From the sequence record NC_022968.1: a DNA stretch of 64,000 bases. One strand, 5' to 3'. This document shows, in pieces, positions 63,558 to 63,667 of the stretch. Position 1 is the stretch's first letter. Every line of letters starts with the position of its first letter. The notes beneath the pieces are model-generated. The model did not search any database. It was not told the origin of the DNA and saw only the letters and a program-made list of their open reading frames with translations. The stretch is from Escherichia phage 4MG. The translations under genes were made by a program, and so were the position numbers.

Positions 63558-63667
63558 TGGAGCAGGGTGGTGGAATCTAACCACCTATGTATTCACCCGC
63601 CGCGCCATTGCTGCGAGCTATTTTCAGGTCTGGCTGGACCTCGCGGTTGACAAACCGCCTACCCTGC
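63558..63667 (-). ncRNA. 110-nt tRNA-like structured RNA
   Basis: Encoded CCA; perfect 7-bp acceptor pairing (GCAGGGT/ACCCTGC); T-arm-like GGTGG-TTAGATT-CCACC; D-arm GCGG/CCGC; about 39-nt insertion; sits exactly where a tRNA is expected. Confidence 0.35.

Follow-up and report, generated by a model that had tools for sequence, protein, structure and literature searches.

What kind of gene occupies a transfer RNA (tRNA) slot when neither a tRNA finder nor a curated RNA family recognizes it? The question arises in Escherichia phage 4MG (NC_022968.1), where a 64,000-nucleotide (nt) stretch, referred to here as the window, was given a preliminary description that reported a tRNA-like RNA of 110 nt at 63558-63667. 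The phage is a GAP31/PVP-SE1-like myovirus (Vequintavirinae, Seunavirus), the last 8 kb of the window being ~90% identical to Cronobacter phage GAP31. Its minus strand bears a tRNA array at ~60.2-63.8 kb, with 23 ARAGORN calls and 20 Rfam tRNA matches; the tRNA-like RNA is called neither by ARAGORN nor by Rfam at gathering score. The analysis below indicates that the locus is almost certainly a genuine, conserved gene for a tRNA-shaped RNA. What this RNA does is a matter for more tentative proposals, among which we prefer a role apart from decoding.

Read on the minus strand from 63667 to 63558, and numbered from G1 (63667), the RNA begins GCAGGGU-AG-GCGG-UUUGUCAA-CCGC-G-AGGUC-CAGCCA-GACCU-GAAAAUA, continues with an extra hairpin, GCUCGCAGCAAUGGCGCGGCGGGU, and ends GAAUACAUA-GGUGG-UUAGAUU-CCACC-ACCCUGC-U-CCA (Table 1). 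The preliminary description had noted a 7-nt acceptor strand with a perfect complement 110 nt away, an encoded CCA, a T stem of five base pairs (bp) with loop UUAGAUU, a D-arm-like GCGG/CCGC hairpin, and a stem with a 6-nt loop. Direct reading recovers all of these, the acceptor strands as GCAGGGU/ACCCUGC and the last stem as AGGUC-CAGCCA-GACCU. The ~39 extra nt it counted come to 40, divided among a 7-nt linker, a 24-nt hairpin and a 9-nt linker, and the tRNA it placed next to the gene is tRNA-Arg(GCG), whose CCA is separated from G1 by a 2-nt spacer (63668-63669). On the strand of the tRNA-like RNA, no promoter-like or terminator-like site was found inside the gene or directly flanking it. 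Across the family the tail reads UCCA in most lineages and ACCU, ACAU, UACA, CACA, UCCC or UUCA elsewhere.

The minimum free energy (MFE) fold of the window copy is a cloverleaf plus one extra arm, at -46.6 kcal/mol (z = -3.2), and none of 200 shuffled sequences folded as well. Comparative support for this shape, on which the preliminary description had made its case depend, comes from 24 distinct homologues aligned with MAFFT (alignment A3), in which 20 pairs of the acceptor, D, anticodon-proximal and T stems are unambiguously placed. Every one of the 480 cells (24 sequences x 20 pairs) is paired, and the proportion falls to 35-47% when the partners are slid by 1-3 columns. Changes on both sides affect 10 of the 20 pairs, in 67 cells, and the covariation score was matched by 0 of 500 shuffles; these cell counts are not numbers of independent events, and most of the sample comes from a small number of phage genera that are close relatives. 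RNAalifold recovers the same arms from a model-guided alignment of 26 sequences, with compensatory changes in 11 of 21 pairs. Moreover, all 24 distinct sequences fold individually into the common architecture, each with a perfect 7-bp acceptor stem.

Compensatory change is distributed over several arms. The acceptor stem retains 7 of 7 pairs in all 24 sequences with compensatory changes in four, and its pair 3:70 occurs as C-G (9 sequences), A-U (8) and U-A (7). The D stem shows compensatory changes in three of its four pairs, and the T stem keeps its five pairs in all sequences. Within the anticodon-like arm the proximal 3 bp are conserved or covarying, and the distal stem covaries as well, appearing as AGGUC/GACCU, AGGAU/AUCCU (rV5 type), AGGCC/GGCCU (L059) and GGGC/GCCC. 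Two further D-stem pairs, U14-A21 and U15-A20, can be drawn to give 6 bp and a 4-nt loop, but they are invariant in 26 sequences and hence lack covariation support. At the tertiary level, the elbow pair 19:56 (D-loop position 18 with T-loop position 90) is G:C in 15 of the 24 sequences and U:A in the other nine, with no other combination; the window copy has U:A, with U at D-loop position 18 facing A56, and in lineages with C56 the D-loop partner is G. Watson-Crick covariation at this site is what an L-shaped tRNA fold predicts. The proposal of a tRNA-like RNA in a tRNA slot is thereby upheld by a cloverleaf-like fold with extensive covariation that includes the elbow. When the window is searched with a covariance model built from the family (R1), 63558-63667 is the only copy, scoring 107.4 bits over model positions 1-108 (E 1.5e-23), and ordinary tRNAs score 11-25 bits on the same model.

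One feature that sets the RNA apart lies between the anticodon-like stem and the T stem. This interval spans 25-41 nt across members and 40 nt in the window copy, the latter exceeding the limits of both class I tRNAs (4-5 nt) and class II tRNAs (a near-direct hairpin of up to ~21 nt). Some 35 nt are inserted beyond the variable-loop position, as a hypervariable hairpin flanked by the near-invariant single-stranded linkers GAAAA and AUACAUA, the former standing at the position expected for a 5-nt variable loop. Of all segments of the RNA, GAAAA varies least, with four of five columns invariant and an entropy of 0.05, in sequences that were not chosen on GAAAA; the D-loop follows a similar pattern (6 of 8 columns invariant, 0.19). 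Over 26 members, regional entropy is likewise low for G26 (0), the T-loop (0.13) and the 3' linker (0.17), and high for the distal anticodon arm plus loop (0.95) and the extra arm (1.45). The extra arm is present in the MFE fold of all 24 distinct members, with a length of ~15-26 nt and a sequence that varies over at least four arm types. Judged from these alignments, the tRNA body, comprising the acceptor end, T arm, D arm, elbow and junction, is under strong purifying and compensatory selection, and the decoding end is not.

The anticodon-like arm departs from that of a translating tRNA throughout the family. As a control, the anticodon arm was measured in 22 tRNAs that ARAGORN calls in the same array: each is 17 nt long with a 7-nt loop, and U33 is present in 21; the corresponding arm of the tRNA-like RNA measures 15-16 nt in every member. 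In the window copy it is 16 nt long (5 bp and the 6-nt loop CAGCCA), in the rV5 type 15 nt (5 bp and UUUUA or UUAUA), and in Erwinia, Justusliebigvirus and N4-like phages 15 nt (4 bp and YAUCAAA). The loop variants are CAGCCA, CAUCCA, CCUCCA, CCGCCA, CUUCCA, UUUUA, UUAUA, CAUCAAA, UAUCAAA and AAUCAAG; U33 is absent in types A and C, and A33 is kept across distant lineages. The window copy has the 7-bp acceptor stem with discriminator and CCA, the T arm and the Watson-Crick elbow of a canonical tRNA, and lacks the canonical anticodon arm of 5 bp, 7-nt loop, U33 and purine 37. With an arm that falls 1-2 nt short and a variable loop of 5-7 nt that mostly lacks U33, the RNA appears to have lost decoding geometry.

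Several known RNAs share part of this anatomy. With canonical and class II tRNAs and tRNA-Sec (the selenocysteine tRNA; RF00005 and RF01852, clan CL00001), the tRNA-like RNA has in common the 7-bp acceptor stem, 5-bp T stem, UUNGAUU T-loop and D arm, together with the covarying 19:56 elbow, the discriminator and CCA, and the position in a tRNA array; it differs in the conserved single-stranded linkers of 5-9 nt on either side of its hairpin. Likeness to tRNA-Sec extends to a UCA triplet in a 7-nt loop in some lineages, and may extend to the D arm, drawable as 6 bp with a 4-nt loop. However, the acceptor and T stems measure 7/5, against 8/5 in bacterial tRNA-Sec, U or A takes the place of G as discriminator, and alignments to the tRNA-Sec model flag the first and ninth acceptor-stem pairs as non-canonical. 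In place of the UCA and G73 of tRNA-Sec, the window copy has CAGCCA and U73, and in type C the loop CAUCAAA is accompanied by A33 and U73. The preliminary description had considered the RNA too long for a tRNA and too short for transfer-messenger RNA (tmRNA), and no tRNA or tmRNA caller accepts the window copy. The tRNA mimicry of its acceptor/T half resembles that of tmRNA, which is matured by tRNA-processing enzymes; the tRNA-like RNA differs in lacking a tag frame and pseudoknots, in its size (110 versus ~360 nt) and in possessing D and anticodon-like arms. ARAGORN reports no tmRNA, and no Rfam tmRNA model matches the locus at E<=10. The bacterial Y-RNA-like YrlA is a non-coding RNA that holds a tRNA-like fold with T-loop/D-loop mimicry, but its termini form a Ro-binding stem where those of the tRNA-like RNA form an acceptor stem, and the YrlA model (RF02553) does not match the locus at E<=10. 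On these defining features the tRNA-like RNA is not a member of tRNA-Sec, tmRNA or YrlA.

Among tRNA-shaped RNAs that do not decode, the viral tRNA-like RNAs (vtRNAs) of murine herpesvirus 68 (MHV68) and mascRNA (RF01684) are processed by ribonucleases (RNases) P and Z and receive an added CCA. These are eukaryotic or herpesviral, smaller than a tRNA and mainly processing handles, whereas the phage RNA is larger than a tRNA, carries a conserved insertion and has neighbors that are not conserved. The Bacillus cereus pseudo-tRNA 'tRNA-Other' has no translation role and a regulatory phenotype (PMC3399842); it differs in being chromosomal, of normal tRNA length and unrelated in sequence. The closest analogues are RNAs C and D of phage T4 (rnaC and rnaD; 139 and 119 nt), which lie at the end of a phage tRNA cluster and were described as stable small RNAs, 'species 1' and 'species 2', that still lack an assigned function (PMC3014915, PMC9697503). 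At its 3' end RNA C has a canonical T arm, CCGGG-UUCGAAU-CCCGG, and its termini are partly paired, but it is without a clean 7-bp acceptor stem, D arm or anticodon-like arm, and the tRNA-like RNA is a far fuller copy of a tRNA. A search for homology with rnaC and rnaD using model R1 at E<=10 matched only T4 tRNAs, and the BLAST matches include no T4-like phages.

The covariance search against Rfam that the preliminary description had proposed as a check matches no curated family. With Rfam 15, at both gathering and permissive thresholds, the window copy and divergent members gave only weak matches within the tRNA clan, the best for the window copy being tRNA-Sec at 20.1 bits (threshold 47). 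The rV5-type copy narrowly passes the Rfam tRNA model (35.5 versus 29 bits), which reads it with a 4-bp stem, the loop UUUUUAA and 26 inserted nt, and the Erwinia-type (type C) copy reaches 39 bits on tRNA-Sec, its loop CAUCAAA aligning with the model's CUUCAAA. The latter score is not specific for tRNA-Sec, because ordinary class II tRNAs from these arrays obtain comparable scores. ARAGORN leaves 20 of 24 members uncalled and calls the other four with a four-base 'anticodon'. Existing annotation is inconsistent: the gene is unannotated in GAP31, PVP-SE1, KB57, VEcB and UTK0002, and is labelled elsewhere as 'tRNA-???(atcc)', 'tRNA-TERM', 'tRNA-sup(tca)', 'tRNA-Lys', 'tRNA-OTHER' or a small hypothetical protein. 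Full-text literature searches returned no description of the family and no report of a phage tRNA-mimic decoy. At most, the literature sets aberrant phage tRNA calls aside as potential pseudo-tRNAs (PMC6454146), and tRNA-like candidates receive no more than a generic mention in a large survey of structured RNAs from phages (PMC10690425). The family is previously undescribed.

Homologues were found by BLAST in phages of Cronobacter, Salmonella, Enterobacter, Klebsiella, Proteus, Raoultella and Escherichia, and pattern scans added viral and metagenome contigs that carry the RNA (one early IMG/VR pattern returned four loci only). After iterated BLAST, matches are present in at least 215 of 50,697 phage records. 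The family spans genera of Vequintavirinae, Henunavirus (Erwinia phage Hena1), Justusliebigvirus (Stephanstirmvirinae; VEcB and ~30 other genomes, 78.7 bits) and one N4-like podovirus, Salmonella phage UTK0002 (Schitoviridae; 107.9 bits). The UTK0002 copy shares 88% identity with that of an Erwinia myovirus, a sign of lateral transfer in the recent past. Every inspected copy sits in a tRNA array, with differing immediate neighbors: downstream lies tRNA-Thr in rV5 phages, tRNA-Asn in the N4-like phage and a promoter-like region in VEcB. A host or prophage origin was considered and rejected; a conserved 22-mer has no match in 185,579 prokaryotic species genomes, and the rV5-type sequence has none by blastn in 5,426 complete E. 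coli genomes. A 91-nt unannotated match in a Phapecoctavirus proved to be an ordinary tRNA-Ser(UGA). Separately, 11-18 'Campylobacter phage' records (~140 kb; MG065655, MG065662, MG065674 and others) contain a T arm/3' linker segment 93-100% identical to the rV5-type Escherichia phage element, which suggests mislabelled or contaminated entries.

The most serious alternative to a non-decoding RNA is a true tRNA that can be charged and decodes, its variable region being oversized. It might be a suppressor or an unusual isoacceptor, reading opal/UCA (Sec-like) in the ancestral-looking type or Lys/UUU in rV5, or a frameshifting or doublet-reading tRNA in the window type with its 6-nt loop. The rV5-type score above the Rfam tRNA gathering threshold and the 39 bits of type C on tRNA-Sec lend themselves to this reading, as do the annotators' labels tRNA-Lys, tRNA-sup(tca) and tRNA-TERM. 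The discriminator and 'anticodon' also co-vary, as U73 with KCC, U73 with UCA and A73 with UUU, sets that we take to recall identity elements that are Gly-like (with G1:C72 and C2:G71), Cys/opal-like and Lys-like, respectively. Yet a constant, orthologous body bears at least four unrelated 'anticodons' in three loop lengths, on an arm of 15-16 nt against 17 nt in the 22 controls, with A33 conserved in distant lineages; the window copy, with its 6-nt loop, scores only 20 bits, and the phage already has its own tRNA-Gly(UCC) and tRNA-Lys. A decoding tRNA is thus rather improbable. Charging by a host aminoacyl-tRNA synthetase without use on the ribosome, as a sponge for the synthetase or elongation factor or as a non-ribosomal amino-acid donor, would make sense of the intact acceptor end with CCA, of G1:C72, C2:G71 and U73, and of the invariant C-C-A in the loop of the window lineage; the non-proteinogenic tRNA-Gly of staphylococci is a precedent, and B. 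cereus tRNA-Other (PMC3399842) is another. This role fits poorly with a 3:70 pair and loop that vary freely between lineages and with members that have no encoded CCA, no candidate transferase was found, and we give it only a slender chance.

A different possibility is that the RNA is a cis-acting handle for processing or punctuation, recruiting RNase P and 3' trimming, for example to free the ~190-nt module X that follows it in the window, with the excised piece itself functionless. Precedents are mascRNA in MALAT1 and the tRNA-miRNA transcripts of MHV68. Plant mitochondrial t-elements offer another (PMC1920247), and in Seuna-, Mydo- and Henunaviruses a structured module of ~185-210 nt with a long closing helix does lie directly downstream. 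However, an acceptor/T minihelix would suffice for RNase P, leaving the conserved D-loop, G26, GAAAA and AUACAUA and the maintained extra and anticodon-like arms unexplained. Nor is the neighborhood conserved: Phapecoctaviruses have module X right after an ordinary tRNA-Arg, and in two of them model R1, applied to 12-kb loci, found no copy of the tRNA-like RNA within 6 kb on either side of the module. The insert also shows no base-pairing signal with adjacent ~190-nt modules (z -1.4 to +1.7). We consider a handle improbable as the whole explanation. A decaying tRNA pseudogene or a small protein-coding open reading frame (ORF) is scarcely credible. RefSeq and authors do sometimes flag aberrant phage tRNA calls as pseudo-tRNAs (PMC6454146), and a 29-codon ORF is open in the window, its AUG formed by the spacer and G1. 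A pseudogene would not keep complete pairing through 67 double-change cells, a covarying tertiary pair and a spread to unrelated phage families, and was rejected on the covariation; the ORF, annotated as such in SSE-121, Mydo and several further genomes, is not conserved, having no ATG in 7 of 24 members and a first stop anywhere from codon 13 to 31.

The reading we prefer, tentatively and at a little under an even chance, is that the locus encodes a stable, non-decoding, phage-restricted tRNA mimic that is matured like a tRNA and acts through its tRNA-shaped body. The RNA would be co-transcribed with the tRNA array. Given its tRNA shape and the 2-nt spacing in a co-oriented array, established tRNA biology predicts an RNase P cut at G1, 2 nt past the preceding CCA; the 3' end would be trimmed, and the host CCA-adding enzyme would complete the CCA where it is not encoded. 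We regard such tRNA-like maturation as likely, and it would in turn lead to accumulation as a stable, tRNA-sized species. The product would then act in trans, through its core, elbow and acceptor end and not through the anticodon: the loop varies freely while the core is frozen, so that a tRNA-binding partner probably recognizes the body, elbow and acceptor end. A search of the 64-kb window for antisense targets of both conserved linkers matched only the element itself, no more than expected by chance.

More speculatively, the RNA might serve as a tRNA surrogate bound by a tRNA-recognizing protein, most plausibly a host defense nuclease or toxin that targets tRNA. Its off-register anticodon arm may make it a poor substrate and a good competitor, complementing the part in counter-defense that has been proposed for the tRNA arrays of phages. 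Several immune systems of bacteria act on tRNAs, and tRNAs of phages have been proposed or shown to counter them (PMC10264068, PMC11555353, PMC13056530, PMC12445682, PMC12851939). We favor a decoy because tRNA-targeting immunity is documented and the GAP31 array adjoins NAD-salvage genes; drawn from anatomy and context, this role is conceivable and of fairly low probability. In its most specific form, which we hold to be doubtful, the RNA would be a horizontally mobile, RNA-only counter-defense device, an uncleavable tRNA surrogate that captures a host tRNA-targeting nuclease or toxin with its intact body and elbow and is spared cutting by its one-bp-short anticodon arm and inserted domain. 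Such a device may act together with modules X, Y and Z and the second aberrant tRNA-like gene of the arrays, described below.

Several points weigh against a non-decoding mimic of this kind. The sampling was in part selected, many members having been retrieved through a pattern that lies in the 3' linker and T arm; the family was resampled with a 5'-half pattern for this reason, and the new members L054 and L059 still carry AUACAUAGG, with AUACAUA retained. The covariation of the elbow pair may stem from one evolutionary event. The rV5-type arm can be redrawn with 4 bp and the 7-nt loop UUUUUAA, which looks canonical (Lys-like, A73), and Erwinia, N4-like and Justusliebigvirus phages have the 7-nt loop CAUCAAA (UCA) on a 4-bp stem; some decoding or charging may occur in these two sets of lineages. 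Literature searches found no transcriptome for Vequintavirinae. Finally, a stoichiometric decoy is not obviously inhibitory to enzymes that turn over.

The arrays in which the RNA resides contain further unusual elements. Module X, at 63367-63557 on the minus strand, is an unannotated segment of ~190 nt between the tRNA-like RNA and tRNA-Leu(UAA), closed by a long helix, AAACAUAUUUUAAAG.../...CUUAAAAUAUGUUU. It is ~70% identical to sequences right after tRNA-Arg in Phapecoctaviruses (ESCO25, L044 6001-6185; ZCKP1), and RNAalifold on six sequences gives 60 pairs, 18 with compensatory changes, with no Rfam match. Module X is probably a second undescribed structured RNA. In relatives the same slot holds other modules of ~185 nt, with closing helices of 11-18 bp and no Rfam matches (Table 1). 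Modules Y and Z share CUUAAAAYCU..CUGCAYCUAnUGGGRUGUGAU motifs that also occur in the N4-like phage UTK0002, and Y and X stand in tandem in PVP-SE1, L025 and L029. These modules have the look of structured-RNA cassettes that can replace one another within tRNA arrays.

A second aberrant tRNA-like gene, of 70 nt, lies at 62264-62333 on the minus strand; ARAGORN reports it as 'tRNA-??? (gt)', and RefSeq lists it as a pseudo 'tRNA-OTHER' in GAP31. Its acceptor and T arms are good, but the D arm is degenerate, the anticodon arm is collapsed to 5 bp with a 4-nt loop (or 4 bp with a 6-nt loop) and no CCA is encoded; the gene is found in 11 near-identical phage records only. Nearby, tRNA-Gly(UCC) at 62425-62498 (minus strand; G1:C72, C2:G71, G3:C70, U73) is not called by ARAGORN, and its Rfam score in the window does not reach the gathering threshold; it is annotated in GAP31 and has an odd D arm and an anticodon-stem mismatch. 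ARAGORN also misses two minus-strand Rfam tRNAs at 61459-61542 (50.5 bits) and 60179-60257 (45 bits), which by position are probably the tRNA-Lys and tRNA-Met of GAP31. Several bona fide tRNAs of the array have unusual anticodon loops, for example tRNA-Ile(GAU) with CCGAUAA (C33; window 62505-62581), tRNA-His with UUGUGCU and tRNA-Arg(GCG) with CUGCGCA, which fits reports of anticodon-loop changes in phage tRNAs (PMC10264068). In VEcB, just downstream of its copy (L045 ~1630-1760), a strong promoter-like TTGACA-17-TATAGT precedes an unannotated tRNA-like sequence with acceptor strands CGGGGUG/CACCCCG, the arm CCUGA-CUUCUAA-UCAGG (UCU), a long variable arm, a T arm and apparently no D arm.

Protein genes are found within and beside these arrays as well. 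A gene of ~115 codons at 62700-63045 on the minus strand, inside the tRNA array of the window, is a homologue of the hypothetical GAP31_191 and encodes a protein with a basic N-terminus and an acidic C-terminus; sigma-70-like promoter matches precede it at 63124-63096 and 63090-63062. Element-bearing arrays adjoin genes for nicotinamide adenine dinucleotide (NAD) salvage, encoding nicotinamide/nicotinate phosphoribosyltransferase (GAP31, L048 79.9-83.0 kb; VEcB, L045 1-553), with phosphoribosyl pyrophosphate (PRPP) synthetase in GAP31. In Phapecoctaviruses, annotated RNA ligases, a metallophosphatase and an 'anti-restriction nuclease' lie near the array.

Table 1. Coordinates of the tRNA-like RNA, its parts and neighboring elements; positions are those of the window unless a locus (L) is named, and RNA numbering starts at G1.
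Feature	Position	Strand	Basis
Whole tRNA-like RNA gene, 110 nt including encoded CCA	63558..63667	(-)	Covariance model R1, fold, homologues
Acceptor stem, 5' strand GCAGGGU (RNA 1-7), pairing with 63562-63568	63661..63667	(-)	
D arm: stem GCGG/CCGC (RNA 10-13/22-25), 8-nt loop UUUGUCAA (RNA 14-21)	63643..63658	(-)	
Truncated anticodon-like arm AGGUC-CAGCCA-GACCU (RNA 27-42), 16 nt, no U33	63626..63641	(-)	
5' linker GAAAAUA (RNA 43-49)	63619..63625	(-)	
Extra arm, 24-nt hairpin GCUCGC-AGCAAUGGCGCG-GCGGGU (RNA 50-73)	63595..63618	(-)	
3' linker GAAUACAUA, 9 nt (RNA 74-82)	63586..63594	(-)	
T arm GGUGG-UUAGAUU-CCACC (RNA 83-99); canonical T-loop save A at the C56 position	63569..63585	(-)	
Acceptor 3' strand ACCCUGC, discriminator U and CCA (RNA 100-110)	63558..63568	(-)	Direct reading
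Upstream neighbor, tRNA-Arg(GCG)	63670..63743	(-)	ARAGORN
Module Y	L003 ~512-700 (PVP-SE1), L017, L025, L029		
Module Z	L015, L016, L047 1609-1800, L020, L036		
Further ~185-nt module in the slot	L046 ~2690-2850		

The current view of phage tRNA genes places them in an arms race in which immune systems of bacteria cut or disable tRNAs. Here a tRNA-shaped RNA, apparently unable to decode in the standard manner, is maintained under strong structural selection by over 200 phage genomes and has passed from one phage family to other, unrelated ones, which suggests that phages put the tRNA fold to a second use outside translation. The family also provides a tractable and well-defined relative for the 50-year-old puzzle of T4 RNAs C and D. 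In practical terms, missing or wrong labels distort tRNA counts and suppressor claims in the genomes of therapeutic phages, which a covariance model for the family would fix. Were the counter-defense proposal to hold, phage 'tRNA arrays' would in part be islands of non-coding anti-immune RNAs.

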